A DNA stretch of 64,000 bases from a virus. The notes under the pieces were generated by a model. It was not told where the DNA came from, ran no database searches, and saw nothing but the letters and a program-made list of their open reading frames with translations. How positions within the stretch are numbered: position 1 is the stretch's first letter; each line of letters starts with the position of its first letter. Location: positions 32,001 through 96,000 of the IMG/VR virus record IMGVR_UViG_3300035670_000067, one strand, 5' to 3'. Position numbers and translations under genes: made by a program. Below are positions 3,801-61,993 of the stretch, in pieces.

Positions 3801-4855
3801 CCGATTAAACCTGAAGCAAGTGTATAACCGATACCCCTTATTGCACCGCCAACCGAAACCGCCAACTTTCTTAAACTGAATGTCAAGAAATTGAAAAACA
3901 TTTCGGCGATTGTTCCTGCGGCTCTACCTAAATCGCCAGCGACTGCGCTAACAGTGTCGCCAAAGATACTACCAACCGTAGAAGCAATTGATCCAACGGC
4001 GGCTCTGGCAGATCCTGATGTTCTTGACTGCAACGCCATCTGTTGCATTTTAGTACCGATATCAATAGCAGTAAAACCAAGAGCGCCACCCAGTTCTAAT
4101 GCCCCCTGTCTAACTGTATTACGTATCATATCTCTTCGTTGTTTTAGTACCTTGGCTCTTTCTCTAAATTGAGAACGCATAGTTCTCTGATATGCGGAAT
4201 TAGCTTTAGCTCTTAACCGCTGAACTCTTAATTCTTCTGCTATATCTCCACCAACAATTCCAGTTTGACCAGCTAATTTGCCAGACGCAGAACGAACATA
4301 GTTATTTGCTATTTCGCGAACTTCTTTTATAGAGCGTCCGTATTTATGCATACCGGCAGCAGCTTTATCCATATTAACTACTGATATTTTAGCTAAAGTG
4401 TCTCTCATCGGCTGCAGATATTTGTTTGCATTCAGCGCAGAAACACCAGCCTGCTTCAATTTAAGTGAAAGAGCGGCAATTTTCATATTATATGAATGCA
4501 TTACCCTAACTTTAGCAGAATTCATAATTGACGCCATAGTTCTAGATATACTATCGCCAGTTTGCCTAAAACTTCTGGAAGTTTTAGCGGAAACACTACG
4601 CAAATTCCCATATCTATTCTGAAGTAATCTTATCGTCCCACTGTAATCCCCAAGCTTCTTATCTGCTCTTTCAGCAGACTTCACCAAAGCATCTACATCT
4701 GCTTTAGTAAGTGTAAACCCCTTACCGGAAGTCTTACGAATTTTTTCTAATTCTGCGCGTAAATCAGCCGCAGTACCAACTAATTTAGCGATCTGCTTCT
4801 GAGAGTTGCCGGTCTTTATGCCAAGAACAAATCTTATTTCTCGTTCTCTGGCCAT
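812..4855 (-). CDS. Tail tape measure protein
   Basis: 1347 aa, helical Ala/Gly-rich, TP901-like core (LSSGF...A.QLA.G...AG....RF), follows tail tube and chaperones. Confidence 0.9.
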   Translation of the reverse strand: MAREREIRFVLGIKTGNSQKQIAKLVGTAADLRAELEKIRKTSGKGFTLTKADVDALVKSAERADKKLGDYSGTIRLLQNRYGNLRSVSAKTSRSFRQTGDSISRTMASIMNSAKVRVMHSYNMKIAALSLKLKQAGVSALNANKYLQPMRDTLAKISVVNMDKAAAGMHKYGRSIKEVREIANNYVRSASGKLAGQTGIVGGDIAEELRVQRLRAKANSAYQRTMRSQFRERAKVLKQRRDMIRNTVRQGALELGGALGFTAIDIGTKMQQMALQSRTSGSARAAVGSIASTVGSIFGDTVSAVAGDLGRAAGTIAEMFFNFLTFSLRKLAVSVGGAIRGIGYTLASGLIGGIIGTLAGGPGGGTAIGAAVMAGITLVVMGVISTIQVIAGRIQLIFEEVIDIVTKSMKVIGDVLTAGFRIIGAIVKGSVRVIKEIWSSFWKGLAALTRMSMNNILESIAKFANDSLVLFVSFERGAVKAAQEVIDIYGTKFQWVMTAVQKMMYRTGMSFEAINEAMFNTLSSGFRTQKEALDVLRASVQLAMGDMSDLGEATNSLVTFFNAYKSQLKDAAEAGRILNAGTTLGVTTLQEYGPALSSAASILESLGVPAREAAIQLAYLTRAFGRGSAGTSSKYMQRFAEAVYRPSSKARKEMEALGLDMNKIQDVTKKRGFGEGFAQMIQQLGKIPVEKLSKVFGLVQARRAFGIFSKKGAIEEIAQMRQEFEKLEKSVSAQVGMALNTMQSKLARINETINVAKLSFAKLLDKLLSATVFSNKMMSYWKELGKILTSSRIESIIERFGKALVVLRPVVDFMKASFEKFLEAVKSLVHGTMFDPQVIEKIKSKLMDIYKFFTSMMKMGDTNYIIMFARIVSDALLKILTIGEKIKNVFVGIFRGDMYSVDKLKRFGQEIYSMIVFAINKALTYASLGLIWLLSQIGVLIASFDIGALMKNSIFSGETVSAMKWLWETFLVAGTIALYKIYDIILQIFDWILNSDNKVITTIMDGVRSVYNGLKSIVTTAYALYGIFQLIWNILKYTSPAMFAFDTMLQAASLDIAKKFGLDVRFDKATPEVLKNLFANADQFFDPNTKNASDAVKRERARVADKIKENEKLLKDNAEIAAQAIENSIGQVTDTLKEYGEKILDYLSGQAGAARAAGAAGNKAQVLTDIHDYEKTRRQSIAEKAQRAARSGTYAGQTFTGGLPKTNWTASQITKASRTVYNRYMKEVAANAAEIQDAAARDAYVRSQVDKIEAAFGKVDYKERAIQGQGTWEGLIGEIQKQLNISPDPLTVRGGEATQKETAQAVETGMLNAMRRLREENRGAVAGKRGGVSVFDNAGTGDVWSVA

Positions 4856-5998: not shown

Positions 5999-6433
5999 TT
6001 AGACGTTAGCGTTCCACACCGGGGCGGTCGCACCCAGCGAGATGTGGCCAGGATCAGCAATCGTAAACGTCAAATCACTTGTGACGAAGTCATTCTGTGT
6101 ACTGGCCACAGAATAGTTACTGAGCTTACAAGCTTCAATAGTTCCAGCAAGACCGCCGCCGTTGGGACCAAACCCAAGCACGACGTCAACATAGTTGTTT
6201 GTCAACATCGCATCACTGAGAGTCCAGCGTGAGCTGGACGCAGTAATCTCGCCAGATCTATTGCCAAGCTCGATAGCAAGTGGAAGACGATAATCGCCAC
6301 CGTACAGACTCTGAGGATCGCCGTCATAACTGACAGAGATTTCTGTCATCACGCCGACGCCAACAGCAGGTGAAACCGCATTCTCTGCTCTAACAACCAT
6401 AGTACCGACAGAAAACTGATATGTGTACGCCAT
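5999..6433 (-). CDS. Tail tube (major tail) protein
   Basis: 144 aa beta-rich, GC-richer codons like the capsid gene, own terminator, position before chaperones. Confidence 0.7.
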   Translation of the reverse strand: MAYTYQFSVGTMVVRAENAVSPAVGVGVMTEISVSYDGDPQSLYGGDYRLPLAIELGNRSGEITASSSRWTLSDAMLTNNYVDVVLGFGPNGGGLAGTIEACKLSNYSVASTQNDFVTSDLTFTIADPGHISLGATAPVWNANV

Positions 6434-6493: not shown

Positions 6494-7828
6494 TCAATCC
6501 TTCAAATACACTAAATCCAAATATGACTGCAATTCGATCATAGAATTTTCCCATGTCCTCCACACAACCGATGCATATCTATTGTCTATTTCTAAACGCT
6601 GTTCGGCAGTGCCGCGTTCTTCATAAACCTGATTCATTTTGTCTCCAAGTTCCTGAATATCACCAAATCCCATTTCTTCTCCCTCATAATAGGCCGAAGT
6701 CCCGACAGCCAATTTATCGTCGCATCTTCTATATGAAACTTCTTTACACAAATATCTCGCACCCTCCATATATTCCATATAACCACAACATTCATTATTC
6801 AATTGAATGATTGGCTTTTTCATAGCTCCTAATTCTAATCCAGGAAGCCAAGTAGATTCACCACTAGAGAATCCAACCAAACAATCTATACGAGAATACA
6901 CATGAGGCAACACTTCTGGATGAATTGGTACGTCTAATACTGAAATATGAGGTAACTTGTTTGCTGGCAACCCTAGCTTGGCAATGCAGGCATTTAGTTC
7001 AAGCCTTATTGACCATTTAGATCTATCCTCTTGATACTCTCCATAAGGCCGATTGCCATACTTGCAGACCAGCAGAAGGCTAACAGGATCATCTTTTGTA
7101 AACGTATTACAATAGGCTTGAACGATTTCTTCAACACCCTTCCTATAGTTCCAGCTTCCCACCACACCAAATACATATCTGTTACGAAGAGACACAATAT
7201 CAATTGGCGTAATTCCAGGGTGAAATAATTTCCCATCATAACCTATCCTCACTGTTGCTAATTGGGACTTAACTCCCGATTCTTTAAATCTGCGATAATC
7301 TATTTCTGTGGGGCATAAGATAAGATTCGCGTTATTACACCATTCCACAAGTCTAGGTTGCATCCTTCTAGTCTCGATCATAGTCCAGCCTATTACAATT
7401 CTATCAGTTGGCAAGAATTCTTTCTGTAGATGTCCAGGACCAGCTATAACAAGGAATATAGATTTACTAATATCAAAACACGGATTATTCACATACCATT
7501 GCAATCTACTAAACAATGCTGGATGAATATCAATTGGTGATTTTATTGGCGAAAGTTTGATATCATATAATCCAGTCTTTTCAAGACCAAATATCACTTC
7601 TCTTGTGTGCCCAGCATACCCACCATAGAAATCAACATAACCTCTAATATGCAGATTTCTCTTTTTAGCTCCAACGAAATCATTGACCAAAAACGGTCTG
7701 GCTAACGCACCTTCTGACGTCAATACATTTCCAATATCTAATGGACATAGATTCATCTCTTCAGCAACTGGATTAGAACAAGTATCACTATTGTTAGATT
7801 TATCTTTTTTTGCCCTTATCATGGCCAC
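6494..7828 (-). CDS. Glycosyltransferase, GT-B fold (GT4-like)
   Basis: GGYAGHTRE, TMIET, RKGVEE, GESTWLPGLELGAM motifs. Confidence 0.8.
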   Translation of the reverse strand: MAMIRAKKDKSNNSDTCSNPVAEEMNLCPLDIGNVLTSEGALARPFLVNDFVGAKKRNLHIRGYVDFYGGYAGHTREVIFGLEKTGLYDIKLSPIKSPIDIHPALFSRLQWYVNNPCFDISKSIFLVIAGPGHLQKEFLPTDRIVIGWTMIETRRMQPRLVEWCNNANLILCPTEIDYRRFKESGVKSQLATVRIGYDGKLFHPGITPIDIVSLRNRYVFGVVGSWNYRKGVEEIVQAYCNTFTKDDPVSLLLVCKYGNRPYGEYQEDRSKWSIRLELNACIAKLGLPANKLPHISVLDVPIHPEVLPHVYSRIDCLVGFSSGESTWLPGLELGAMKKPIIQLNNECCGYMEYMEGARYLCKEVSYRRCDDKLAVGTSAYYEGEEMGFGDIQELGDKMNQVYEERGTAEQRLEIDNRYASVVWRTWENSMIELQSYLDLVYLKD

Positions 7829-8316
7829 TCATCCTCGGTTCCATATCTGCTTTGGTAATCTTCATCCTTTGCTGAGACCACGAGAGAAAAATTCATAAAT
7901 CCACAATACTTCTCAAATTGATTTGAATATCTGAATTCTCTTTGTGTTCTCAAGCACTTGGCTACATACAAACCATAATTGCTAGGACTGTTTACTTCGC
8001 ATAATTGTTGTGGACGTTTATTTAAAATATTTTCTATCTCGTCCATTATCTTACTAGCGGTCGTCCTAGGATTCTTATCCGTCTTTTCAACCCACACATA
8101 AAATCCTATAGAAGCGTGTTCTGCTGGCAACTTTTCTTCAGCATTTTCTATCACGTAATCGTAACATATCTGTGGATATCTATTGCCGATAGGATTGCCG
8201 TCACTTGGATGTATTTCTATATTACCATTCTGGTCTTTTGCCAGCAGTTTCACCAAAATTGGCGATAATTCAAGGACTAATGGAATCTTTGCTTCTATTT
8301 TGATTGCTGTTGGCAT
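7819..8316 (-). CDS. Probable tail terminator/completion protein
   Basis: YPQICY motif, size and synteny. Confidence 0.5.
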   Translation of the reverse strand: MPTAIKIEAKIPLVLELSPILVKLLAKDQNGNIEIHPSDGNPIGNRYPQICYDYVIENAEEKLPAEHASIGFYVWVEKTDKNPRTTASKIMDEIENILNKRPQQLCEVNSPSNYGLYVAKCLRTQREFRYSNQFEKYCGFMNFSLVVSAKDEDYQSRYGTEDEWP

Positions 8317-8936
8317 TATTCACCGACTTGTTGAAGTATTAGCCTCGGGATTTCTTCCAACATTCTTTTCTCTGCCAATTCTAAAGATTTATCCATCCAC
8401 TGATATCCTGGTGCAATCTTTGATACAGAAGTAGTAAACACAACACCATATTTTTCTGAGCCTGCTTTCTGCGCGTTCAGCCAAGTTGAAGTGCTAGTAT
8501 ATCTTAACTCATTATCTATGTATCTTTGGCGAAATTTGCCTCTTAATCTATTGTATGGAATAGCAAGTGCGTATGGATGTTTGTAAGATCTTGGAGGCAG
8601 CGCTTTTCTACCATACTGTTCTATGATCAATGGGAAAAACGCTTCCATGACTGATTCGGATAAAATGATTCTTGATGTCAATTTATTATTTTCTATTCTT
8701 AAGCTTACACCAGCACCAATTTTGGGATTTGTAATTTTTCTATTCTCAGATTTTAACTTATCAACTATACCTGCATATTTCCTAGTCGCTGGACTACGCA
8801 TCAAAACCGTTTTGAGTGACTGTCTTAAAATCTTTGGTCCATTAGCATTAATGACATTAATACTCTTTTGGACTTTCTTCAAAAGAACCTTACTTAATTT
8901 TGTTTCAAATTCTTTCGTTGATAAATTATTACGCAT
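8316..8936 (-). CDS. Basic neck/tail-completion protein (HK97 gp10-like position)
   Basis: Basic 206 aa between head closure and tail terminator. Confidence 0.4.
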   Translation of the reverse strand: MRNNLSTKEFETKLSKVLLKKVQKSINVINANGPKILRQSLKTVLMRSPATRKYAGIVDKLKSENRKITNPKIGAGVSLRIENNKLTSRIILSESVMEAFFPLIIEQYGRKALPPRSYKHPYALAIPYNRLRGKFRQRYIDNELRYTSTSTWLNAQKAGSEKYGVVFTTSVSKIAPGYQWMDKSLELAEKRMLEEIPRLILQQVGE

Positions 8937-11070
8937 TGGCGAAATTCACTTCTTCTATACGTTCAGCGTTTACTTCCAAATGATGTCCTCTACCTGCCGC
9001 GTCATTGACGTGAACAACTCTAAATATAATTCCTTCTTCGCTTGTCATCGAACTTGATTCGCTCGCTTCAGAAGAGGAAGATGTGCTCAAAAATGTTGAG
9101 GAGCTCGAGCTGAATGAACTTGTTGAAGAACTGGAACTTCTAGTAGAACTGCTTGAAGAAGAAGAATAACTGTACGGTGTACTCAATTCTAACGTGCTCA
9201 GCGATGTTGAGCTATCAGATGATGATGTAGATTCAATTACACTACTGGACGATGAAGACGACTGTGAAGAAGTCGAAGATGATGAAGACGACTGTGAAGA
9301 ATCTGATGACTGAGAAGTTGGCGATGACGAACTACTAGACGATGATTCTTGCAGAAGCGTGGATGATGACGACGAAGATGTTTCTGACGCTTCGGTTGAC
9401 GAAGACGAAGACGAAGACGATGACGTTTCAGATGCTTCGGTTGACGAAGACGAAGACGAAGTTGATGACGAAGACGATGATAAAGACGAAGATGTTTCCG
9501 ATGCTTCGGTTGATGAAGAAGATAACGAAGTTGATGACGAAGACGAAGACGAAGACGATGACGTTTCAGATGCTTCGGTTGACGAAGACGAAGACGATGA
9601 CGAAGAAGTTTCCGATACTTCTGTTGATGAAGAAGATAGCGAAGTTGATGATGAAGACGAAGACGAAGACGATGACGTTTCAGATGCTTCGGTTGACGAA
9701 GACGAAGACGAAGACGAAGAAGTTTCCGATACTTCAGTTGATGACGACGAAGAGGATGACGAAGACGTTTCCGATACTTCTGTTGATGAAGAAGATAATG
9801 AAGTTGATGAAGATGATGACGAAGACGAAGATGATGTTTCCGACGCTTCGGTTGATGATGACGAAGATGAAGAAGAAGATGTTTCAGATGCTTCGGTTGA
9901 CGAAGACGATGACGAAGACGATAACGAAGACGATGACGTTTCAGATGCTTCGGTTGACGAAGACGAAGATGAACTACTTAAAGACGTAGAACTACTCGAA
10001 GACGACATTTCAGGTCCTTCTTCTTCAATGTCGCCAGATTCCATATTTACAGCTATTAAATCCGCGTTCCCCATAGTGTCTGGAATAGTGGGGAAAGAAG
10101 TAATATCATCAAATCTATACCAAGAATAAATATTAGCAAACTTTGGATGAGATTCTAGATTTTTTGGTCTACCGTCATTCCATATAAGAGCAACATCTGA
10201 TCCAGCTTTAGCGAATTCTCCTAAAGCTATTTCTTTATTTGAAATATAACCATCATCAAGATTTGTGTGCCAAAACACATAATCATCAAGATAGTAAGCA
10301 CCGCCAGAAACGGTGGCTGAAAGAAATTTAGATATTGATGTTCTAGAAACAACCGGTAGTGAAAAATCATTAGGAGTTGCCGTATACCCAATCAGCTTAT
10401 TATCTTCATATATTCTTATATCTTTTCCAGGATTGAATACACAAATAACACAATGCCATCTTCTATCATCGATGAAATTTGATTGATGTATGGAAGATGC
10501 AGTAAGATATAATTTGTTTTGCTGATTTCTACAATAAACTTGCCATATAGCACCAGGACCTGAATCAACTATCATTCGAATTCTAACGAAAATATCGCCC
10601 CAATTAGCTAAATTGACTAAGATTTGACTGAGAGCATATTGATTTAGATCTAAACCATCCCATCTCCACCAACATGAAATGGACCATCCAGAATTTGGAA
10701 AAAAAGAAACTGGAGGATTAGTCCCCACAAAATTGATAGATTCATCCACACCATCTAATCTTATTGCTTTTTGATTGCCGTAACTTGATGACGATGACCA
10801 ACTTGAAAACTCTATCGAAGATTCACCAATACTGCTTGAAGACCAAGAATTGAACTCTGCGCTTGTTGAAGTGCTAGATGTCGAGCTTCTTGACGATGAT
10901 GAAGAAGAACTGAATGAGCTATATTCTCGTGAAGTAAGAGAAGAAGATAATGAAGTTGATGAAGATGATGAAGATGATGAAGAGCTAAATGAATTGTATT
11001 CTCTTGAAGATATTGAAGAAAAACTTTGCGAATTTTCTGTACTACTCGATGAAGAAATATCTACAGACAT
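8929..11070 (-). CDS. Ser/Thr-rich mucin-like virion protein with LamG/ConA-like domain and head-closure-like C-terminus
   Basis: AIRLDGVDESI...WSISCWW...WHCVICVF...IRIYEDN...YLDD...SWYRFDD LamG pattern between poly-Ser tracts; about 10 TE(A/V)SET-S(n) repeats; ends FRVVHVNDAAGRGHHLEV. Confidence 0.75.
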   Translation of the reverse strand: MSVDISSSSSTENSQSFSSISSREYNSFSSSSSSSSSSTSLSSSLTSREYSSFSSSSSSSRSSTSSTSTSAEFNSWSSSSIGESSIEFSSWSSSSSYGNQKAIRLDGVDESINFVGTNPPVSFFPNSGWSISCWWRWDGLDLNQYALSQILVNLANWGDIFVRIRMIVDSGPGAIWQVYCRNQQNKLYLTASSIHQSNFIDDRRWHCVICVFNPGKDIRIYEDNKLIGYTATPNDFSLPVVSRTSISKFLSATVSGGAYYLDDYVFWHTNLDDGYISNKEIALGEFAKAGSDVALIWNDGRPKNLESHPKFANIYSWYRFDDITSFPTIPDTMGNADLIAVNMESGDIEEEGPEMSSSSSSTSLSSSSSSSSTEASETSSSSLSSSSSSSSTEASETSSSSSSSSSTEASETSSSSSSSSSSTSLSSSSTEVSETSSSSSSSSSTEVSETSSSSSSSSSTEASETSSSSSSSSSSTSLSSSSTEVSETSSSSSSSSSTEASETSSSSSSSSSSTSLSSSSTEASETSSSLSSSSSSTSSSSSSTEASETSSSSSSSSSTEASETSSSSSSTLLQESSSSSSSSPTSQSSDSSQSSSSSSTSSQSSSSSSSVIESTSSSDSSTSLSTLELSTPYSYSSSSSSSTRSSSSSTSSFSSSSSTFLSTSSSSEASESSSMTSEEGIIFRVVHVNDAAGRGHHLEVNAERIEEVNFANA

Positions 11071-11348
11071 TATTCACCTGTCAAATCAATAAGTTGGTCA
11101 TTGTTATGCCATTGCATCAGCTGTGGAAATATCTCGCTGTAAGAATATCTATCCCATTGACTAAATTCTTCAGGCAGCAAATGCGGATTAGCTGAGTAAT
11201 GTTTAGTCACCTTTATAACTGTTAATCCAGTCTTTGTTCTTATACAATCACCAATATTCTTTTCAACTATTATTCCAGCATCCATGTATTCTTGAACTTT
11301 ATTCCAATTTTCTTGGAATGATGTATCAACTATGAAATAGATATTCAT
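11070..11348 (-). CDS. Hypothetical protein
   Basis: 92 aa ORF coupled to both neighbours (ATGA and TAATG overlaps). Confidence 0.6.
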   Translation of the reverse strand: MNIYFIVDTSFQENWNKVQEYMDAGIIVEKNIGDCIRTKTGLTVIKVTKHYSANPHLLPEEFSQWDRYSYSEIFPQLMQWHNNDQLIDLTGE

Positions 11349-12058
11349 GACGAGCTACTCCCACTGGTTGATGAAGATGATGAATTTGTTACGCTACTAG
11401 ACGATGACGATGATGATGAACTGTGAGAGCCATATCCGCTACTGGTACTTGAAGATTCAGAACTTGAAGAACTACTAGAAGCGGAAGAAGTGGACTCTGT
11501 TGCATAACCTATACTTGTGGAAGAACTTGAGCTAGAACTTCTAGAAGATTCACTAGATGAAGAACTCAGTGAGCTCGTGCTAGATAATGAACTAGTTGAA
11601 GACCAGCTTTGTGAAGTGCTCAGTTCTCTGCTCGAACTTGAATAAGAACTAGATGAACTTGATGAACTACTAGAAGAAGATGAACTTGAAGATGACCAGC
11701 TCGAAAATTCTATTGATGAACTACTTGAAGACGAACTTGACGAACTACTTGAAGAAGAACTAAATGAACTATACTCTTCATCTTCATCACCATATGCATA
11801 TTGCTGATGTACTCTTATGAAATCCCCATCTCTGATATTCGTGCCATAATCAAAGAAAAACAAGTATCTGGATTTCGATAAGTTCCCAGCATCCCCGCCT
11901 TCAGCTAAACTTGGAATTTCTTCTTGTTCAAATGTACATATTACATTTCTTGCGACAGTCACTAGCTTACGAATACGTTCTCCATATTCATTGCGCGTAC
12001 CAAGATCGCGCAATCTGAGTATCGAACATTTTCGTATTAGTAACCCTTGGAAACTCAT
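11345..12058 (-). CDS. Head-closure/head-tail adaptor N-terminal part (SPP1 gp16-like) with poly-Ser tail
   Basis: MSF..LL...CSI.R...NEYGE...NV.C...YLFF.....IRDGDFIRV pattern, then about 140 aa of Ser/Thr. Confidence 0.7.
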   Translation of the reverse strand: MSFQGLLIRKCSILRLRDLGTRNEYGERIRKLVTVARNVICTFEQEEIPSLAEGGDAGNLSKSRYLFFFDYGTNIRDGDFIRVHQQYAYGDEDEEYSSFSSSSSSSSSSSSSSSSIEFSSWSSSSSSSSSSSSSSSSSYSSSSRELSTSQSWSSTSSLSSTSSLSSSSSESSRSSSSSSSTSIGYATESTSSASSSSSSSESSSTSSGYGSHSSSSSSSSSSVTNSSSSSTSGSSSS

Positions 12059-12723
12059 ACTGCTTCGTATACGAAACTGTTGAATTGAGGCAACAGAGAA
12101 AACAGATACTCAATATATTGATCCAAACTCATTCGTGTTGAATCGCTGGTCGTCCTGCCAGCTAACACGTAACGGTATTTGCCTATCTCTTCTTCAAGTA
12201 TATCACCCTTGGCATATACAGATGGATTTAATCTAGCCATTGTTCTATTGATTATGCAAAGCTGGAGCAAGGACAATATTGATGCAGGTGAAGATGTTCC
12301 AAATGTCCCAACGATTTTTATATTCCTTATCCCCTTGGGGAAAACGCCAGCTTCTTCGTCATTGCCATATTCTATGTTATCTATAGGATTTATAATTTCT
12401 ATCTTACCAGTGTTAGGTTCATACCAGATTTCTCTTGTCGCACTTGTCTGCGTCACATTTACACTTGTCTCGGCCAAATCTTCTCCAATAAGCGTCATGG
12501 AAACCAATGAAACTATGGGAATTGGAGTTACGAATAGATGCTTAGTCCCGTCGCCATCAAAGTATAATGTCTGTTCTATTGCTTCCCAAGTAAATCCAGA
12601 TTTTTGCGTAATTTCTTCGTAAGACGCACTTCTTATGAGAGTAGGTATATCACTAATACTAAAACTAGGATTCAATATCCTAAAATATTCTGCGATTTGA
12701 TCATCTGTCAGAAAATCGGCCAC
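12055..12723 (-). CDS. Head-tail connector (gp6/gp15-like)
   Basis: FDGDG..HLFV.PIP.VS, FPKGIRNIKI.GTFG, EEIGKYRY patterns typical of phage connectors. Confidence 0.7.
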   Translation of the reverse strand: MADFLTDDQIAEYFRILNPSFSISDIPTLIRSASYEEITQKSGFTWEAIEQTLYFDGDGTKHLFVTPIPIVSLVSMTLIGEDLAETSVNVTQTSATREIWYEPNTGKIEIINPIDNIEYGNDEEAGVFPKGIRNIKIVGTFGTSSPASILSLLQLCIINRTMARLNPSVYAKGDILEEEIGKYRYVLAGRTTSDSTRMSLDQYIEYLFSLLPQFNSFVYEAV

Positions 12724-12732
12724 GCTTCACCT

Positions 12733-13737
12733 CTATTCGTTAGGCTTAGTATCTGTCTTTTGACCGACTTTCTGACGCTTTTCCCATTCTTCGAATTTAC
12801 TTTCTGGCTTGCAATACAATCCCCTAGTGGGTTCGTTCGCTATATCACCCAATCCATCTGTCGCATAAGCAACAGCTTCTTCAAATGGGACATGATCGAA
12901 AACTTTCAATTCAGATTTTTCATTGCAATTGTATATCTTTAATCCAACAGCATCAAAGTGTGGCTTCAGCTGTGGAAAATATTCTTCTCGCATTCTCTTG
13001 TATGTATTCAAGTTACAATTGACAGCGCCCTTGTCGCGGCCTTCATCGAAATGATAGGTATTTGTTTCGCTCATATTAAGATCAACGCCAAGCAAGAATA
13101 TAGTTCTAAATCCAAGCAAGAACAATATCCTAATGGCCGGCAATATCACACTTCTACCACCGCCATAGTCTTCAGCATTCCCCCAATTAAGAGTATCTTC
13201 CCAAAGCCATCTATTGGCGTGGAATTTACTATTCCTCTTGAAATAGTACACGTTAGGGACATCGCCAACATTACAATCCAACGGACAATCGTTATAGTTG
13301 TCCCACAATGGTTTGTCTACCGCTCCTATCGGAACGAATTTCATAATCTTAGGATCAACCCAAATAGAACGAATAAATCTAGATGGATCATCAACACTGA
13401 TCCACGCATCTGGCCTATATGTTCTTGGACTATTGTTTAATCCTAGAGTCCAACAATTCTTCAATTTGGTCAAATCAAGAAGTTTGAAGCTTGGGCCGCC
13501 CGCTATGAGGAACGCCGTTGCGCCTTTGTAGTGCCCCAGTAAGGCGTTTGCAGTGTTCCCTTCTCTTGTCCAGAAGAAAGGCATTGGCTGAAACCATTCT
13601 TTTTCATAGGTGTGGCCCAGCCATAACTTTCTGTCTTTGATCATTTCATAAGCGCGGCCATCTCGCATACGAGAATCGTCTTTTCTGTCGCGCTTCAGCC
13701 CACGCTCACAGACATTGTTCATTTTCTTTGGCTTCAT
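12733..13737 (-). CDS. Maf/DUF115-like (MptE-like fold) putative glycosyltransferase
   Basis: AFLIAGGPSF, LGLNN, WISVD, S....AIRILFLLGFRTIFLLGVDL, YHFD, IYNC motifs. Confidence 0.7.
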   Translation of the reverse strand: MKPKKMNNVCERGLKRDRKDDSRMRDGRAYEMIKDRKLWLGHTYEKEWFQPMPFFWTREGNTANALLGHYKGATAFLIAGGPSFKLLDLTKLKNCWTLGLNNSPRTYRPDAWISVDDPSRFIRSIWVDPKIMKFVPIGAVDKPLWDNYNDCPLDCNVGDVPNVYYFKRNSKFHANRWLWEDTLNWGNAEDYGGGRSVILPAIRILFLLGFRTIFLLGVDLNMSETNTYHFDEGRDKGAVNCNLNTYKRMREEYFPQLKPHFDAVGLKIYNCNEKSELKVFDHVPFEEAVAYATDGLGDIANEPTRGLYCKPESKFEEWEKRQKVGQKTDTKPNE

Positions 13738-14468
13738 CGCTGAATCTCCAGATGTTTGCCAGCTTCAGGATCACGCTCATGATTTAGATGGAACTGTTTT
13801 TTCTTTGTAGACAATTTCCATTTTTGAAAACGCTTCTTGAACTGTAAGTCTGACTTTGGATTTAATCCTTTGTTGAACATGTGAAAATCTCTACTATTAC
13901 CTTCGATGTAGTATCCATTCAATAGGTTCTTGTGGACCATCTGAAAATATCCAGCTCCAACATTGCCCATTTTACGATTGCTGATTGCGGCTAAATCTGC
14001 AGTCTTTTCAATCAAAGACGGATATTGAATACAGTCTATTAATTGATCAACATCTTGCACTTTGTTTGACCAGCGTCCAACAGATATCATTTTGCTCAAT
14101 CTATCTTCTGAACTCATAATCAGTTCGGACACTTCTTTCCAAAATCCTAATTCATAAACCATGTCACAATCAGAAAACACAACATATTCGGTATCTTCGT
14201 CAAGCATCTTTACTTGATCATTTCTGGTATAGCCGCGCATAGCGAAACGTTCTTTATCTTCCATTAAAAGCAACTTAATCTTTAATCCACACTTCCTATA
14301 GAAATCTACAACTTCTTCAGTTGTTGGATTCCCATTGTTGGGCATGGCACACACGTTAACGACCAATTGATTCTGCGAAAAGAATTTTTGTTCAACTGCT
14401 AAACTGGATAAATCCCAGCAAAGACGTCTCTGATAATTGTGACACAATAATAGGATCTCTATTTTCAT
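13734..14468 (-). CDS. Glycosyltransferase, GT-A fold (GT2-like)
   Basis: RN...EYVVFSDCDM DxD motif, GAGYFQM, SD.QF, HLNH. Confidence 0.7.
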   Translation of the reverse strand: MKIEILLLCHNYQRRLCWDLSSLAVEQKFFSQNQLVVNVCAMPNNGNPTTEEVVDFYRKCGLKIKLLLMEDKERFAMRGYTRNDQVKMLDEDTEYVVFSDCDMVYELGFWKEVSELIMSSEDRLSKMISVGRWSNKVQDVDQLIDCIQYPSLIEKTADLAAISNRKMGNVGAGYFQMVHKNLLNGYYIEGNSRDFHMFNKGLNPKSDLQFKKRFQKWKLSTKKKQFHLNHERDPEAGKHLEIQR

Positions 14469-14474
14469 GTTACC

Positions 14475-16052
14475 TCACGGAGTTAGATATTGTCTGAAGT
14501 TGTGTTTGACGATTCTTCGTTTGCCGCCAAGTCTTGTTATGACATACCATACAAGAGTGTCTTGGGAAGGTATTGGCATCTTACCGCCGCACATCCGCGC
14601 TAGATGCTTTGTGAAGGCTGTTTTTTCAATCGAGAAAAACGTACAAATTCTTTTGTGGCGATGCTTAGGCTGTTCTATCTTCAGCCCACTAAATAGAGGC
14701 TTTGTCTTATTGAAGTCTGGCAGCTTGTCTGCCCACCAATCTAATAGATGAAGCCAGTGGATTCCATTTTTCTCATAAATCGGATCATGTTTAATCTTAG
14801 TGTATCCCCAAGGTGAAGCTGTCAAGGTTGCGTCCCACGCTTCTTCGGGAATTTCTATTTTATCACACTTTGGCGTCACATCGCAATCCATCTTTATCCA
14901 ATATCTAGTCTTTACATTTTTCGCAACACCGAAAACAAATGCGCTGAGCATATGCTCTTTGTCTGACAAATCTGAAGAGTTCGGCCAAGTGATAACGCGA
15001 GTGCTGTTGTCTACTTCTGTAATAACAAAATCAATACATTTGCTGTCAGCAAATACAATCTTTTTCATATGTTTGATAGGTTCGACATTCTGCCAAAGTT
15101 TCCAATTCTTCAAGAAATGATGTAAATACTTATTATTGACTGCTGTTACTAATGTACAAAGATCCGCATTATTGTCTTTCTCTTGCAACCACTTTTCTAC
15201 TGAGCTATCGTGAAAGCAAGAATGCTCAATATCAATGAATCCATTCTCTCGCATCTCAGAATATGTCTTTTTCCAATATTCGCAATTCTTATATCTACCG
15301 ACATGCTTGTGTCCATGATAATGTATAATCTTTGTATCTTTGGTGACTGTTCCAAATCTAACAGATTCGCCCCATTCTGTGCCAGCCAATCTATGCTCTA
15401 CAAGAGGAAGCATTAGCTGACACGCTATTTCGTCAACTATTCTAGTCGTACAGCGCTTCTCATACCCGCGCTGACATATCTCATTCCATTTTTCTAAGGC
15501 TGGATCACCACTAATCCAGCCATTGATGCCCGTGTTTATTGCCGCGCCATAGGCTAACGCGCCAGCTATTAATTCAGGGCAAGCCTTCTTCCAAGCGTTT
15601 ATTCTACGTGAAATAGAACTACCAGTTGTTTTCCAATTCGCAAAATTCCCTGTAACAAATCCATTAGCTGCTATCATCATGAAATATTCATCTATTGGAT
15701 TCAAAACAAGTGTATCGGCATCCAGAAACATCACTAAATCAAAATTATTCACATAGCGATGTAATGTTGGCTTTATGCTCAGCGGATAATCATTAGATTC
15801 TGGCATATAAGCGGTGAAACACTTGAGCTCTTTCAATTTTGAAAGGAACCAGTCGTCCTGCAACCCCTGTAACAGAACAACTATACTTCCATTCCAAACC
15901 TTGCGCAATGAATAGATGCTAACAAGCATCCTCAAGCAGCATTTTGTTCCACGATTGAAATAGATTACTGTCTTACTGCATGTTAAAGAATCTAACATAT
16001 TTTCTTCCATCAATAACTCGTTTAATGATGTTTCTTTGGTTGTAGCACTCAT
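14475..16052 (-). CDS. Two-domain glycosyltransferase (GT8-like plus second GT-A domain)
   Basis: VMFLDADTLV, INTG, DE, IIHYHG..K; second domain YWIKMDCD and QDT. Confidence 0.7.
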   Translation of the reverse strand: MSATTKETSLNELLMEENMLDSLTCSKTVIYFNRGTKCCLRMLVSIYSLRKVWNGSIVVLLQGLQDDWFLSKLKELKCFTAYMPESNDYPLSIKPTLHRYVNNFDLVMFLDADTLVLNPIDEYFMMIAANGFVTGNFANWKTTGSSISRRINAWKKACPELIAGALAYGAAINTGINGWISGDPALEKWNEICQRGYEKRCTTRIVDEIACQLMLPLVEHRLAGTEWGESVRFGTVTKDTKIIHYHGHKHVGRYKNCEYWKKTYSEMRENGFIDIEHSCFHDSSVEKWLQEKDNNADLCTLVTAVNNKYLHHFLKNWKLWQNVEPIKHMKKIVFADSKCIDFVITEVDNSTRVITWPNSSDLSDKEHMLSAFVFGVAKNVKTRYWIKMDCDVTPKCDKIEIPEEAWDATLTASPWGYTKIKHDPIYEKNGIHWLHLLDWWADKLPDFNKTKPLFSGLKIEQPKHRHKRICTFFSIEKTAFTKHLARMCGGKMPIPSQDTLVWYVITRLGGKRRIVKHNFRQYLTP

Positions 16053-16818
16053 TTAACAATTCCTCTGCTGCCTCTTCATGCTCTAAATGTACCTTCAGTG
16101 TCTCTATAAATTTTTTCAACAAATCGAACTGCTCTTTGCTTATCCCAGTAACACACTCTTTCACTTCACCAAAATCAAATCTAATTGGATCGCATCTTAT
16201 TGAACTATCATTGTCGCCTATAAGATTCTGTATAACTAACACTAATTCCATCAATGATAAAGTGCTGATATCTGGGATTTTATTGCTCGTGACACAATCT
16301 ATGAAATTATCTAACTCTGCAAATTTGATTCTTGTCAACGGATTATCTGTAACAATGTAAGATTTATTTATCAGCAATGATAGCGCGATATTGCACACCG
16401 TTGTATCAGTCCTCATTGATGAACAAAATCCATATAAGCTTGGAACATCAATTATATTTATTCTTGAACCGCTAATAGACGAGCAGTTGTTATGTTCTGA
16501 TTTGAATAAAACAAATCGCTTGTATTTCTTGGATCTAATGATATCTAAACACTTTACATTCAATGCATGTAAATATCCTACGAAGTCTTGCTCTTTCCAC
16601 AACTCTTCATAATCCAGTATAACACACCAATATATCGTGTCATACTCTTCTTTTATTTCGTAATTTAGAATATCACAGATTTCAAGATTTGCAACATCAA
16701 TATCGTTGAATTTGTGGTATAGATTTATATCTACACCATCTACTTTTCTTAAATTGCCAATATTGGAAAATATCTTATATCCAACATTCCCCAATGCTCC
16801 AATCACCAGATCTTTCAT
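15973..16818 (-). CDS. Divergent NAD(P)-dependent epimerase/dehydratase-like protein
   Basis: N-terminal LVIGALGNVG Rossmann motif; SLYG....MRTD..V. Confidence 0.5.
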   Translation of the reverse strand: MKDLVIGALGNVGYKIFSNIGNLRKVDGVDINLYHKFNDIDVANLEICDILNYEIKEEYDTIYWCVILDYEELWKEQDFVGYLHALNVKCLDIIRSKKYKRFVLFKSEHNNCSSISGSRINIIDVPSLYGFCSSMRTDTTVCNIALSLLINKSYIVTDNPLTRIKFAELDNFIDCVTSNKIPDISTLSLMELVLVIQNLIGDNDSSIRCDPIRFDFGEVKECVTGISKEQFDLLKKFIETLKVHLEHEEAAEELLNECYNQRNIIKRVIDGRKYVRFFNMQ

Positions 16819-17990
16819 AGTAGATTAAACACCTTTCTACATTCTATTTGATTAGCTTCGTAAAACAGTCTTGTGTTAATATCATTAGCCATATTGGGAT
16901 CATGCATTCTGGTGGCAGATTCTTCATGAATACCCATGGCTTCTGCGCAATACCAAATTGATACACCGCGCTTCTTAGCTCTAAAACAGAAATCAACATC
17001 ATTGCAGTCACCATAGTATTGTTCATCTAATCCATTAAGCTCTTTGTACAGATCTACATTTATAAGGGCACAGGCGAAGGTGACGGCATTTACCTCTCTG
17101 GTTGGATAAAAACACTTATCATGTTTTTTACCGCGTCCAACATGCTCAAACAAATTGTTTCCATCACCCATAATGATACCGGCATGTTGATACCTAAAAT
17201 CTGGATAATACAAGGAAGCGCCAACTATGCTCGCATTTTCTTCATGGCAAGCACAAAGCATCTCATTTATCCAATCAAAATGCTCCATCATATAGACATC
17301 ATCGTTTAGAAGAAGAACGTACTTATATCTGCCTTCGATATGACGATGTATGATAGTATTATTCAAATGACTGAAATTAAACCTGCTTGTATTCTCAAAC
17401 ATATCAACAGAATAGCGCTGTCCGTACATTTCATTGTATCTCTTCAAAAAATCTTGATCGCCATAAAATCCAAGGTATGGCGTCCCACGCTTTATGCATC
17501 CCAGACATTTATCTAATCTTGTAGAATTGGAACTAAGAATTACAATTGCCACATCTTCATCTATATGTCTCGTGTGCGCATATCTGTCTCCGCAGAAACC
17601 AGATATTTTAGTTGCGTTTCTTCCTTCTATCGCATGCGAAAATTGTATTTCGTTCTGTACTATGCCACGATATTCTCTTATCACTGATATTGTTGCTTTG
17701 CCCGCCAACACTGCCGCCACCATTGCACACCAAGACCTGTCTGAGAACATATTACGACGGGCTAAGACCACCACTGGCACACCAGCCCCGCCCCCCAGCC
17801 CCGCCCTACTTGTGAAAACGTTTACCGGGGTCTTTATACCATTCTTTTTCTTGTAATAATCGAAAACTATAATATCTGCCTTAGACTGTTCAGCTATATA
17901 AAACAACTCTTGTTCTTTGTTTGACGTATCATAAATTCCGTCAGTCCTAACTAAAATTTCCCAGTCTTGATTGTGTGTTATCATTTTCAT
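16815..17990 (-). CDS. Glycosyltransferase family 2
   Basis: FNFS..NN, LLLNDD, VGA.LYYPD..YQHAG, AVTFAC, DVDFCFR, HEESATR. Confidence 0.85.
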   Translation of the reverse strand: MKMITHNQDWEILVRTDGIYDTSNKEQELFYIAEQSKADIIVFDYYKKKNGIKTPVNVFTSRAGLGGGAGVPVVVLARRNMFSDRSWCAMVAAVLAGKATISVIREYRGIVQNEIQFSHAIEGRNATKISGFCGDRYAHTRHIDEDVAIVILSSNSTRLDKCLGCIKRGTPYLGFYGDQDFLKRYNEMYGQRYSVDMFENTSRFNFSHLNNTIIHRHIEGRYKYVLLLNDDVYMMEHFDWINEMLCACHEENASIVGASLYYPDFRYQHAGIIMGDGNNLFEHVGRGKKHDKCFYPTREVNAVTFACALINVDLYKELNGLDEQYYGDCNDVDFCFRAKKRGVSIWYCAEAMGIHEESATRMHDPNMANDINTRLFYEANQIECRKVFNLL

Positions 17991-18065: not shown

Positions 18066-19052
18066 TTAGAAGGAGACTGTCGTGCTCAGATTGTCGATCT
18101 CGCAGGTCATATCTGTCCGATTGAACTGGAAGGCGATACGCTCACTGGTAACGTACTTCCGCTGATCGGATTCGATGACTTTATCAGATTCGAGTTTGAT
18201 GCGCCGACGATCACCAATCTCGCAGGCTTCACGATGCATGACCACCGCGTGACCTGACGGAGCGTTAGCGAGTTCGTACACACGAACGCCATAGATGGTG
18301 GTCAGCATACCATCTGACTCACCAGCTGAGCCAAGACCAGTGATGAAGCTCGCCAGAGCCAGACCAGTCATGCTCGTGTTTTTGAAGTTGGTGTTTGACC
18401 GAATATTCGCAGCCTGATCGGGAGGAACGATGCAGATCAGACGGCTCTTGTTGCGACCATATTTCCCAAGGTTATAGATCGCGTTATTAACCATGTCTTC
18501 ATCGAAGGCGGCACCACCGCCAGCGACTTCTGACGCACCAGATTCATTGGCAACGGTGAAGATACCGTCAAACGCAAGACGCGAATCACGGATATACCAG
18601 TTGGCGGTTGTCGCGGACTCAGGCGTCGGCGCAGTAGCGGTGTGATCAACATCGCCCTGGAGGAACGCCAGTTCTTCCGCCTCAGCAATAGCATCGGCGA
18701 AGTCCTGCAGAACCTGAGCCACAACGTCAGGCTGAGAATCTTCGATAGCTTCTTCGTCAATCATGACGTAAGCCATCAGTTTCTTAGCCGTCCATGTGAC
18801 TGAAGTCGCCGCATAGCTTGTCAGCGTAGCGGTCGTACCATCAGGAATATAGTACGCTGAACCGCCGCTAGTTCTCTTCGGCTTGGTCCATGTGCGCGAA
18901 GGCATGGTGAATGACGGGACCAGTCTACGAATCAGGTTGCGTTCGCGAACGAACTCGATCACCTGATTCGCCAGAGGCGTCGGAAGATAAGCACTGATGC
19001 TGGACCCAGAGGTCGCAACTGACAGTGCCTTGCGGATAAGCTCGACACTCAT
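18066..19052 (-). CDS. Major capsid protein (HK97 fold)
   Basis: YLP..LANQVI...RE, AKKL.AY..I.EE..EDS, FA.AIA.AEE.AFL.GD, TIYGVRV. Confidence 0.92.
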   Translation of the reverse strand: MSVELIRKALSVATSGSSISAYLPTPLANQVIEFVRERNLIRRLVPSFTMPSRTWTKPKRTSGGSAYYIPDGTTATLTSYAATSVTWTAKKLMAYVMIDEEAIEDSQPDVVAQVLQDFADAIAEAEELAFLQGDVDHTATAPTPESATTANWYIRDSRLAFDGIFTVANESGASEVAGGGAAFDEDMVNNAIYNLGKYGRNKSRLICIVPPDQAANIRSNTNFKNTSMTGLALASFITGLGSAGESDGMLTTIYGVRVYELANAPSGHAVVMHREACEIGDRRRIKLESDKVIESDQRKYVTSERIAFQFNRTDMTCEIDNLSTTVSF

Positions 19053-19073: not shown

Positions 19074-20180
19074 TTACTTCTGGGTCGTTGACGCTAACAG
19101 AAGACCAAAGTAAACACTGGTCGCTTTACTCTGCTCTTCCTTGCTTAACGCCGCAAACTCATCAGGATTGCCCTTCAGAGCATTGCCGTCGCCAAGCAGA
19201 TGGAGAACGTATTTGACAGTTTCGGGATCCGAAGCGTCCTTGAGAACTTTCTTGATCTTATTAGGATCGGGCTGTTCTGAGGACTGTTCGCTTTTCTTGC
19301 CAAGCTGGGCGGTGAGAGCGGCAACGCTCTTAACCAGTTCAGCCATGACAGGATTTTCTGTCTCAAATTTCTTCTGCGCAGCGGCTTTCGCAGCATCCGC
19401 TTCCTGTTTCAGTTCTTCAGCTGTCTTGGCTTTCTGAGACAGAGCAGTGATCGCATCAGCAAGCTGTTTCTGCGAAGCAGCAACAGTATCCACAAGCGCT
19501 TTCATCGCAGCAACAGAATCAGCAACAGGCTTAATCTGTTCTGCGACCATTGTCTTCGCCTTTTCCTCAGAAACGCCACTCGGCGTCGGCTGAGGAACTT
19601 TATCGGTCTTGGTGGCCATATGTTTCTCCTTGTTAGAGATCTTGTTTTGCAGTGATTTCCCGGTTGCTTCTAAAATAGAAGCTGCGGGATTTGCTGGTAA
19701 ACCTACAACGCTAACTTCAAAAAGTTCCATTTCTTTGATTCTATACTCAGTAATACTTCCTGTGTCAGGATCTTCCACCCTTTCCACTCTCTTTACACGC
19801 AATCTGATGGACATTGAATTTAGAATACCTTCTTTAATTTTAGTCCAGATATCATCAACATCATTTGCCTTGCTAAACTTCACGGTAACGATAAGACCTT
19901 TATCGTCCACCTCGGTCTTCACAACCTTGCCAACCGGCTTGTCTGTGTCGTGATTGAAGAATACCGTGTTGGCACCGGGCTGTAATAGATCTTTTTCAGA
20001 TTTCTTCCAAGCTTCGAGTGTAATGACGTCACGAACACGATCTTTGACAATAGTACCAGCATATCCAACAAGAATTCTATCACCACCCTTTTCACTCACA
20101 CCCTTTATCTTAAAAAGACTGTCAATAGCTTTATTCACGTCTTTTTCAACAGATTTCTTGATCTTCATTTTCTTTTCCAT
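19074..20180 (-). CDS. HK97-family prohead protease with C-terminal scaffold-like region
   Basis: GYA....DR..D, FFNHD...PVG, IK.G.LNSMSI, LFEVSVV..PANP.A. Confidence 0.92.
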   Translation of the reverse strand: MEKKMKIKKSVEKDVNKAIDSLFKIKGVSEKGGDRILVGYAGTIVKDRVRDVITLEAWKKSEKDLLQPGANTVFFNHDTDKPVGKVVKTEVDDKGLIVTVKFSKANDVDDIWTKIKEGILNSMSIRLRVKRVERVEDPDTGSITEYRIKEMELFEVSVVGLPANPAASILEATGKSLQNKISNKEKHMATKTDKVPQPTPSGVSEEKAKTMVAEQIKPVADSVAAMKALVDTVAASQKQLADAITALSQKAKTAEELKQEADAAKAAAQKKFETENPVMAELVKSVAALTAQLGKKSEQSSEQPDPNKIKKVLKDASDPETVKYVLHLLGDGNALKGNPDEFAALSKEEQSKATSVYFGLLLASTTQK

Positions 20181-21742
20181 TACTCGCCTAAGAGGTATAG
20201 ATTGCGATAGTGGTTACTTACTTTGACTTCCTTCAAAAGCATATCAATCATAGTAGCTAATTTTTCTTGATTCCCGTCAAAATGCTTTTCACAAATCTTT
20301 AATGTCTGAATAAATCCGTATATGAGTTGTTTTTCTTCATCAGTAAAGGTGGACATAATGGTGTCATTAAAAACATTGTCTGTATTTAGACGCTCTTTTG
20401 CACACTTCACAATCAGAGATAAAGCAGAATCAACAATATCCTTCTTGGGTTTCTGCTGAGTCTGTTGACCACTACCCTGTCTGGAAGGCGGCACTATTCT
20501 GCCAGATGGATCAACTTGCCCACCGCCAGGAAGAATATTAATCGGCGTATCACCCCATGGAACTTTAGACATACCCTTCTTAGCGCGTCTTTCATTAATG
20601 ACTATAACGCCATTTCTAAGATCGTCACTATCTATTCTCCCTTCTGTCTCTGCATCTTCAAGATCGATAGCGCCAAACTCTAACTTTAGATCCATAAAAC
20701 CAAAACCGTCTTCTATGATCTCTTTTGTATAAGCGTAAGCTTCTTTATTCAATATAGGTTTTAGCGCACCATTCTTATAAATGCGAACTTGTTCTGCAGA
20801 ATTCAATTTGCCGGTAGTCTCATCAACTATACCCATGATGAATGGCTGCATCTTGAAAACAGCAAAAATTCTATTTCTTATTTCCTTGCCATATTCAGAG
20901 AATTCCATATCTTTATTATTGAGCGCTATTCTAACCCAACTCAGCTTATCACTATTCGTAATAAATGTCCTATGTGAATTACTTGCCCCCTTAAACTTAG
21001 ATTCCCAGTATTCTCTGAATTTCTTTAATTCTGTTCTGCTTAATCCAGGAACAGTCAAAACACCGCGAGCCTCTGCGCCATTGATAAAATTGTTCGAATT
21101 GTAATTAGCTCTGAGCAGATCTGTTGCCACACTATTCGCGACAACGTCTATTGGCTTTAATCCGTATGGTGTAGAACTCATGGGCAAGATGTTCAGAAGA
21201 ATTATTTCGTCCTTATCAAACTTAGGCGAATCTTCTGTAACGATCCCATTAGAAGTCTGTATGTAAGTATTCTTTTCGTAAAGATTACCACTTTTGTCTG
21301 TTCTTATTTTGATCGAAGCAGATTTTATCGCATAAATTTCTCTAAGAAGTTTCTGCCGCTTAACCTTTTCTATTGTACCGTATCCCCATATCAGAAGATC
21401 ACGTAAGAACTTTTCTCTTATTTCTCTAAACGACTCTTTGTTTAGATTGGGGTCGTTCAAGAATTCTGTGACGACTTCTATACGGCTCTTTACTTTACCA
21501 TCTATCTTTTGGTCTTTGTCCTTAGGCACTATTGACCAATTTGTCTGTGTGCAATCGTCAACTATTCTGTTGATCGTAGCAAACAGCCATTCATTCGCAT
21601 GATATAATTCAAAGGCGTCACTATTACTTACTCTGATGAACATTTCTTGGATAGGTGCGCCACTACGCACAAACCCATCTATTTCGCCAGATGCATCTTT
21701 TATAATCAGCCCGGTCGCTTCTGATAACGTCAGTCTTTTCAT
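20180..21742 (-). CDS. Portal protein
   Basis: DLLIWG, YGL.PI, F.NGA..RGVL, DMEF.E, I.AVFK..P, INE.R...GM..VPWGD. Confidence 0.92.
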   Translation of the reverse strand: MKRLTLSEATGLIIKDASGEIDGFVRSGAPIQEMFIRVSNSDAFELYHANEWLFATINRIVDDCTQTNWSIVPKDKDQKIDGKVKSRIEVVTEFLNDPNLNKESFREIREKFLRDLLIWGYGTIEKVKRQKLLREIYAIKSASIKIRTDKSGNLYEKNTYIQTSNGIVTEDSPKFDKDEIILLNILPMSSTPYGLKPIDVVANSVATDLLRANYNSNNFINGAEARGVLTVPGLSRTELKKFREYWESKFKGASNSHRTFITNSDKLSWVRIALNNKDMEFSEYGKEIRNRIFAVFKMQPFIMGIVDETTGKLNSAEQVRIYKNGALKPILNKEAYAYTKEIIEDGFGFMDLKLEFGAIDLEDAETEGRIDSDDLRNGVIVINERRAKKGMSKVPWGDTPINILPGGGQVDPSGRIVPPSRQGSGQQTQQKPKKDIVDSALSLIVKCAKERLNTDNVFNDTIMSTFTDEEKQLIYGFIQTLKICEKHFDGNQEKLATMIDMLLKEVKVSNHYRNLYLLGE

Positions 21743-61991: not shown

Positions 61992-61993
61992 GG

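Follow-up and report, generated by a model that had tools for sequence, protein, structure and literature searches.

Glycosyltransferase-like genes and serine-rich proteins in the head-tail module

The stretch of DNA analyzed here (the window, 64,000 nucleotides) comprises bases 32001-96000 of a single virus contig (IMG/VR record IMGVR_UViG_3300035670_000067; 110,384 bp, 42% G+C), whose completeness is estimated by CheckV at 76%. In its head-tail module, genes for glycosyltransferase-like enzymes lie next to genes for virion proteins with long serine tracts. An initial annotation, made from the sequence without database searches, had read the two as one system for building a bottle-brush glycan coat. 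Every gene in window 1-26000 is on the minus strand, and gene order and the overlapping or tight packing of enzyme and structural genes were confirmed to be as that annotation had described them.

The major capsid gene (18066-19052, HK97-type; phrog_10, E = 1.9e-20) forms the upstream edge of the enzyme block. Five enzyme-like open reading frames (ORFs; 12733-17990) separate it from the gene of the head-tail adaptor (12055-12723; phrog_442, E = 3e-5), which has homologs in related phages. From the capsid gene towards the adaptor gene they had been called GT2, epimerase-like, GT8-like, GT2-like and Maf/DUF115-like, and homolog profiles and folds bear these assignments out, at different strengths. 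A sixth enzyme gene, GT-B/GT4-like (6494-7828; phrog_2170, E = 1.6e-10), was likewise recovered between the genes of the tail terminator and the tail tube, directly before the latter.

Two genes of the neck region, annotated as Ser/Thr-rich low-complexity genes, do encode such proteins: the product of 8929-11070 (713 aa) consists of 41% Ser and 49% Ser plus Thr, and that of 11345-12058 (237 aa) of 46% Ser. The phage has two further poly-Ser proteins, a 1632-aa tail-module protein encoded just left of the window (genome 27094-31992, L228:7094-11992, minus strand) and the product of 57237-57920 (minus strand), a 104-aa domain with a Ser tail of ~120 aa (41% Ser). All six Ser codons are in use within the tracts, and tandem units of 45-159 nt are also present. 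Such Ser-rich ORFs are rare: a strict threshold of at least 70% Ser plus Thr in 40 aa left 1 in 1.1 Mb of random viral DNA.

The Ser tracts always join globular or anchor domains. In the centre of the 713-aa protein lies a Laminin_G_3 (ConA-like lectin; LamG) domain (E = 1.5e-4), a paralog of which opens the 1632-aa protein (Laminin_G_3, E = 2e-11). The latter alternates five poly-Ser tracts with four globular segments and contains three LamG domains, its last segment holding two Laminin_G_3 domains (E = 9e-32). Thirteen Ser tract starts in three of the proteins (8929-12058; L228:7094-11992) bear the motif E/D/Q-F/Y-x-S-W/F/Y-S-S. The form E[FY]xS[WFY]SS was considered as a general sequon and rejected, the motif being absent from the Ser-rich tracts of other phages. 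The Ser-tailed gene 57237-57920 stands in tandem with a tail-less paralog (57944-58264), and upstream of this pair lies a second sugar cluster (59594-62898) with GT2-like, methyltransferase, Capsule_synth (KpsC/S-like) and BNR/sialidase-like genes.

Poly-Ser tracts interrupt the head-closure protein

Among relatives, head closure is a single protein of 112-144 aa. A hidden Markov model (HMM) of 121 positions was built from the head-closure proteins of seven relatives. Its positions 1-86 match the product of 11345-12058 (E = 4.8e-8; phrog_615, E = 3.3e-5), which opens with the first ~86-100 residues of head closure and continues as a Ser tail of ~135 aa. The last ~35-40 residues, including the HHxE motif, form the end of the 713-aa protein; the boundaries of the two HMM matches (1-86 and 87-119) are exactly complementary, and the HHxE motif is aligned. 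Instead of the single polypeptide typical of PF05521-like, phrog_615 proteins (~110-145 aa), the two halves are thus encoded by two genes, ~2.9 kb apart. Between them lies a 92-aa ORF (11070-11348), for which family searches were empty and the Atlas search gave no useful match.

The ORFs 11345-12058, 11070-11348 and 8929-11070 occupy three frames, joined by ATGA and TAATG overlaps with the Shine-Dalgarno-like sequences GGGAG and AGGTGA. Because of this arrangement, the split looks genuine in this assembly. One relative (L031) carries at the same site poly-Ser, a small domain of ~110 aa without a family assignment, and poly-Ser again, with no intervening gene; its insertion region has one frame break, located in a low-quality stretch. 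Judged by alignment, the poly-Ser tracts and the LamG lectin-like domain are insertions within the head-closure protein, a more exact description than that of neighboring Ser/Thr-rich neck genes. Head-completion rings are usually 12-fold. A neck ring of that symmetry would carry as many as twelve each of serine tails and LamG arms. The interrupted gene bears on how far a neck ring tolerates large insertions or can be assembled from split subunits.

A triad of putative glycosyltransferases

Since the window's own proteins gave only sub-threshold Pfam matches, the enzymes were classified via homolog-built profiles, and two of them, the Maf-like and the dual GT-A protein, were modelled. Three of the six, encoded side by side at 12733-16052, form what we call the triad. 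None of the six enzymes has a convincing membrane segment or a signal-like N-terminus.

The first triad member (14475-16052) combines a GT8-like N-domain with a second GT-A domain. In the N-domain, a DxD motif (D-A-D) and the motif HYHGxKH are conserved in 21-22 homologs, and the glycogenin profile matches with E = 3e-4; this domain therefore has the DxD and H-x-x-G-x-x-K signature of GT8 in a GT-A fold. A PF01501 match was obtained in 4/22 homologs, the window protein itself having no Pfam GT8 match. The C-domain contains its own conserved DxD. For the model (mean predicted local distance difference test, pLDDT, 88) the nearest structure is LARGE1, over the whole model (E = 6e-15), with further fold matches to UGGT, K4 chondroitin polymerase (K4CP), LH3, GlyE, glycogenin and the Mimivirus glycosyltransferase R699. 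Many homologs consist of the N-domain only.

The second member is a GT2 glycosyltransferase (13734-14468). Its profile matched 5tze (E = 4e-8), with SunS and GalT1 lower, and 11/15 homologs gave a PF00535 match (best 6.3e-9), the window protein alone having no Pfam match. The residues D100 and D102 are invariant and form the DxD motif expected of GT2.

The third and universal member is a Maf/MptE (DUF115)-like transferase (12733-13737). Comparison with PF01973 gave E = 1.8e-6 and 28.3 bits, below the curated cut-off of 34.6 and restricted to profile positions 126-170, an outcome repeated when the whole genome was scanned; several close homologs carry a precomputed PF01973 match. The protein also matched phrog_4603, an 'alpha-2,3-sialyltransferase' (E = 1e-8). 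The model (pLDDT 82) superimposes on Maf (5mu5) with a VIA Z-score of 13.1 and a root mean square deviation of 3.9 Å over 197 residues (Foldseek E = 2.5e-4). The alignment spans residues 255-517 of 5mu5 and hence the central catalytic-domain fold of Maf. The next folds were an MptE-like kinase (Z = 10.8), Cst-I/CstII of GT42 (9.2-9.6) and GT29 enzymes (~8). The additional N- and C-terminal domains of Maf are not present in 12733-13737, and the structural module showed no flagellin gene. Metagenomic homologs number more than 250. Throughout the family a GxD...Y.FD stretch is invariant, and the sole sequence-level match in the Protein Data Bank (PDB) is a sialyltransferase, aligned across this stretch.

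The core enzymes are conserved independently of poly-Ser

The other three enzymes recur in relatives: behind the capsid gene come genes of the GT2-like and SDR-like types, and the tube gene is preceded by a GT4-like one. The GT2-like gene (16815-17990), which belongs to the family core and is invariably found behind the capsid gene, gave a PF13641 match in 6/13 homologs; its profile matched chondroitin synthase (E = 3e-4), the NDD motif is conserved, and its long homologs carry fused GT4 and GT2 domains. The second core gene (15973-16818) encodes an extended short-chain dehydrogenase/reductase (SDR) resembling sugar-nucleotide epimerases and dehydratases. Its profile matched PDB 6vo6 (E = 5e-11) and UDP-glucuronic acid decarboxylase (E = 2e-10); the Rossmann N-part and the C-part are matched, the central catalytic part is not. 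For the GT4-like protein, 2/4 homologs gave a PF13692 match (best 5.7e-5), and a sequence-only PDB search with its profile found no match. It shows 38-49% identity to its counterparts in relatives without poly-Ser, and some relatives have GT4+GT2 fusions of 850-960 aa. One relative (L012:16056-17508) has, in the slot after the tail terminator, a collagen triple-helix protein and not a GT4-like gene (Gly 24%, Thr 17%, Pro 13%; PF01391, E = 1e-42).

Capsid-based scans recovered ~30 loci (L001-L030) with 49-73% identity to the window capsid. Besides the window, a single family member (L031/L363) has the triad between capsid and adaptor genes, and only in these two phages were triad and poly-Ser head closure found together. 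Seven relatives (L010/L361, L012, L014, L016, L017, L026 and L364), which are all the triad-less ones with the neck region covered, have a plain head-closure protein of 112-144 aa, and their coding strand is free of Ser-rich ORFs; in L364, a Maf-like gene is missing from the entire 111-kb record. A dual GT-A gene is present at a contig end in L006. At another contig end (L020:4421-4721; 51% capsid identity), an ORF with SSSSPEE repeats lies ~1 kb after the capsid gene.

The initial annotation's expectation that poly-Ser structural genes and the glycosyltransferase block co-occur across relatives holds for the dual GT-A, GT2 and Maf-like genes; it fails for the GT2-like, SDR-like and GT4-like genes, which are kept without poly-Ser. 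As these three persist in at least seven relatives lacking both Ser tracts and triad, gene content indicates that their primary role cannot be stalk glycosylation, although they may contribute to it here.

Maf-like genes co-occur with Ser-rich proteins in unrelated phages

Scanning viral contigs with the Maf-like profile yielded 80 loci of 147 relatives, many of them from contigs of 100-476 kb. Co-occurrence was counted in 77 non-duplicate Maf-like loci (1.26 Mb), scoring Ser-rich ORFs within 10 kb, with 120 random viral loci (1.10 Mb) as a control. At the strict threshold, 29/77 Maf-like loci had a Ser-rich ORF (39 ORFs in 1.26 Mb), compared to 1 ORF in 1.10 Mb of random DNA. When the requirement was relaxed to at least 50% Ser in 40 aa, 51/77 loci had a Ser-rich ORF in the orientation of the Maf-like gene, 19/35 in a diverse clade and 32/42 in a high-GC clade. 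The strand bias was pronounced, with 64 Ser-rich ORFs on the gene strand and 1 on the opposite strand; the control gave 7 per 1.10 Mb on both strands.

Loci positive for Ser-rich ORFs are distributed over at least 10-12 separate branches of a Maf-like tree. Homologs of the dual GT-A/GT8 enzyme occur in 29/80 Maf-like loci and GT2 homologs in 19/80, and L054-L058 have the Maf-like and GT8 domains fused into a single ORF. In the high-GC clade a Ser/Gly-rich gene directly abuts the Maf-like gene; in L075 (10723-12261) and ~30 similar high-GC loci, a ~500-aa Ser/Gly-rich Hint (intein-like, PT-HINT) protein is encoded right after it. Elsewhere, too, the Ser-rich partners are components of the particle or resemble fibre proteins, and they include a T4 neck protein (L058), a PF05521 head-completion protein (L059) and proteins with triple LamG (L034), BclA_C (L056), FG-GAP and Hint domains. 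Translation also revealed SE- and SSA-type Ser-rich proteins in L032 and L078. A scan for TCN patterns had read triad-bearing records such as these as free of tracts, a result that was discarded as an artefact. The reverse test, starting from loci picked by (TCN)10, recovered 24 ORFs that are nominally poly-Ser and none of the triad genes; the loci in question are short, and many of their ORFs are small and may be the antisense of acidic tracts. Full-text literature searches for a pairing of phage poly-Ser with Maf/DUF115 found no paper.

By its genomic distribution, the triad is a mobile cassette travelling with Ser-rich virion proteins, both in the capsid family and in many unrelated phages.

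Proposed glycosylation of serine stalks

We favor an explanation in two layers, to which we assign a probability of roughly 0.55: the GT2-like, SDR-like and GT4-like genes constitute a family core, and the acquired mobile triad would O-glycosylate the poly-Ser tracts. Read this way, the gene complement suggests that the particle is probably sugar-coated on serine stalks. Gene content, folds, the insertion into head closure and genomic co-occurrence are observations; our inferences concern the glycosylation of the tracts, a bottle-brush coat, the identity of the priming enzyme, the donor sugars and any biological role. The original interpretation as a whole is partly supported.

For the core layer, gene position would allow modification of capsid or tube, as in some mycobacteriophages. 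The triad is proposed to act in the cytoplasm, before or during assembly. The protein-directed step is most plausibly assigned to the Maf-like enzyme, which alone among the triad is never missing and whose nearest relative of solved structure modifies Ser/Thr of flagellin with sugar. Extension of the glycan, perhaps into a chain of repeats, would then fall to the GT2 and to the two-domain enzyme resembling LARGE1 and K4CP. As acceptors we propose virion appendages, namely the head-closure protein, interrupted at about position 86 of 121, and the 1632-aa tail protein. KpsC/KpsS-type enzymes use CMP-Kdo. With the phage's own KpsC/S-like (Capsule_synth) protein in mind, it is conceivable, if speculative, that a host pool of CMP-ulosonic acids serves as donor.

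Several points weigh against this explanation. The phage is uncultured, and glycosylation is predicted from its genes. All of the window's own enzyme proteins score below the curated Pfam cut-offs. With 334 aa, the Maf-like protein corresponds to the central domain only of the 632-residue Maf chain, and its fold is common to pyrophosphokinases (MptE-like kinase, Z = 10.8) and SteA. Searches of the whole 110-kb record for NeuB (PF03102) and a CMP-sugar synthetase (PF02348) gave no match. The match of the head-closure HMM to the C-terminal 50 aa of 8929-11070 (positions 87-119) is weak (E = 0.011). Within the capsid family, triad and poly-Ser probably arose once, so that the contrast there amounts to a single event. 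Outside it, 26/77 Maf-like loci have no Ser-rich ORF within 10 kb, many of these loci being truncated, and the Maf-like tree is a quick tree rather than the outcome of a careful search. Finally, tblastn with the Maf-like protein against 50,697 deposited phage genomes detected no homolog, even at E = 0.01. The capsid gave only partial matches to deposited phage records, at ~30% identity; thus, no cultured relative is available.

The alternative that survives best, which we nevertheless regard as unlikely, is that the Ser tracts are unmodified flexible linkers spacing LamG from neck and tail, and that the transferases target capsid or tube, host envelope glycans or DNA. That the tracts always connect globular or anchor domains would suit such a role, and polyserine linkers, not described as glycosylated, are reported from bacterial carbohydrate-active enzymes, e.g. 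of Saccharophagus degradans (PMC2386152). The core enzymes, retained without poly-Ser, also indicate that some transferases of the virion module have other targets. Plain linkers would leave unexplained, however, the ~15- to 35-fold enrichment of Ser-rich ORFs near Maf-like genes, their 64:1 strand asymmetry, the abutment of the two genes in the high-GC clade and the joint presence or absence of triad and tracts in the capsid family; moreover, the enzymes lack the membrane segments expected for envelope seroconversion.

It is improbable that the six enzymes all act in a single pathway making one bottle-brush glycan for the stalks, as initially proposed: their location in one co-oriented late operon of overlapping or abutting ORFs and an SDR-like enzyme that could provide a modified sugar donor are compatible with this, but the GT2-like, SDR-like and GT4-like genes are kept in the relatives that have neither Ser tracts nor triad. 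Least probable, by a little, is that the Maf/MptE-like protein is not a glycosyltransferase and adds, for example, a phosphate- or pyrophosphate-linked group to serine, creating an anionic brush, since against a second-best fold match to the MptE-like pyrophosphokinase, further matches to thiamine pyrophosphokinases (Z = 5-8) and a record that encodes no CMP-sugar pathway stand the better match to Maf, the sialyltransferase aligned across the invariant stretch and the linkage or fusion of the gene to GT8 and GT2 domains.

Returning to stalk glycosylation by the triad, a more general version can be put forward tentatively, at somewhat less than even odds. Many uncultured phages would carry a self-contained virion glycocalyx module, made up of near-homopolymeric serine stalks on neck, head-completion and fibre proteins and a portable Maf-like/GT8-dual GT-A/GT2 cassette that primes and then polymerizes long glycans. 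The product would be a mucin-like brush with LamG heads, and in the present phage head closure would be formed from two separately translated pieces.

If this holds, environmental phages would include a widespread, unstudied class with acceptor stalks and a self-encoded sugar coat, at odds with the usual view of phages as bare protein, and effects would be expected on adsorption, sticking to mucus or capsule, protease resistance and immune recognition. The Maf-like proteins would represent a new protein-directed branch of Maf/sialyltransferase-like enzymes, and the dual GT-A enzyme possibly a compact LARGE1-like glycan polymerase. The capsid family provides a natural comparison of phages with and without triad and poly-Ser, as well as short, clonable test substrates.

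Other features of the contig

Further head genes were identified by PHROG matches: large terminase (21771-24047), portal (20180-21742) and protease (19074-20180). The terminase has 758 aa, of which residues ~92-239 are without counterpart in the 560-590-aa terminases of relatives. This insert begins with Cys and has a mini-intein layout; Pfam gave no match. The terminase of one relative (L023) is longer still (973 aa). At the nucleotide level, searching deposited phages with the head module gave no match.

Downstream of the interrupted head-closure gene, a conserved neck-region protein of 206 aa (8316-8936), without a match in family searches, is matched by homologs in equivalent position in L031, L361 and elsewhere. 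The next gene (7819-8316) encodes a tail terminator or tail-completion protein (gp17-like; Atlas features 0.94, 'Tail terminator family'; structural TM-score 0.69-0.81 to PF11367 clusters). The tail tube (5999-6433) was assigned by position, with 66-68% identity in relatives and a weak phrog_290 match, and the tape measure gene lies at 812-4855. At the right end of the window, 63289-63993 encodes a protein of the uracil-DNA glycosylase superfamily (PF03167, E = 4e-37).

Comparison with known glycosylation systems

Maf enzymes act in the cytoplasm, where they attach nonulosonic acids to Ser/Thr residues of a surface protein that self-assembles. The flagellin O-glycosyltransferase Maf of Magnetospirillum magneticum (PDB 5mu5; PF01973) is the best fold match of the third triad member, which falls in the same Pfam family at sub-threshold level. 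In contrast to the 632-residue 5mu5 chain, the 334-aa phage protein comprises the central catalytic domain alone; neither flagellin nor a nonulosonate pathway accompanies it in the phage, and the proposed acceptors are homopolymeric Ser tracts on virion proteins.

Low-complexity acceptor repeats on surface fibres, served by dedicated transferases, are also known from the glycosylated fibres of giant viruses and from BclA of the Bacillus exosporium, and both R699 and BclA_C were among our matches. These systems differ in acceptor chemistry (collagen-like GXT, fibril proteins) and in belonging to viruses of eukaryotic hosts or to spores; no homology was found to their acceptor parts.

The dual GT-A polymerases LARGE1, E. 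coli K4 chondroitin polymerase and Pasteurella heparosan synthase 2 resemble the product of 14475-16052 in having two GT-A domains, each with a DxD motif, and the best matches span both domains of LARGE1 and K4CP. Identity is only 9-13%, polymerase activity is predicted from the model, and the many homologs reduced to the N-domain differ from such polymerases.

Glycosylation of serine-rich repeat proteins (SRRPs) in Gram-positive cocci, carried out by GtfA/B together with GT8 (GlyE) and GT2 (GalT1) enzymes, likewise pairs a dedicated Ser-rich acceptor with clustered soluble GT8 and GT2 enzymes. GlyE (5gvv) and GalT1 (5hea) are among the fold and profile matches, and the SSA repeats of L078 are reminiscent of SRRP repeats. 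Unlike the bacterial system, the viral one has a Maf-like candidate primer and near-pure Ser tracts and implies no accessory Sec export; family scans of the block genes gave no likeness to GtfA/GtfB or accessory Sec, no search dedicated to these having been made.

Mycobacteriophages offer a viral parallel. Virion glycosylation reportedly occurs in Che8, Corndog and Myrna and is said to influence immune recognition of mycobacteriophages. As in the window, phage glycosyltransferase genes lie inside the structural operon, one by the capsid gene and one by the tube gene, and the phage particle itself is the presumed target of their products. The acceptors there are few residues of capsid or tube, whereas the acceptors proposed here are stalks with hundreds of serines, served by a different set of enzymes.

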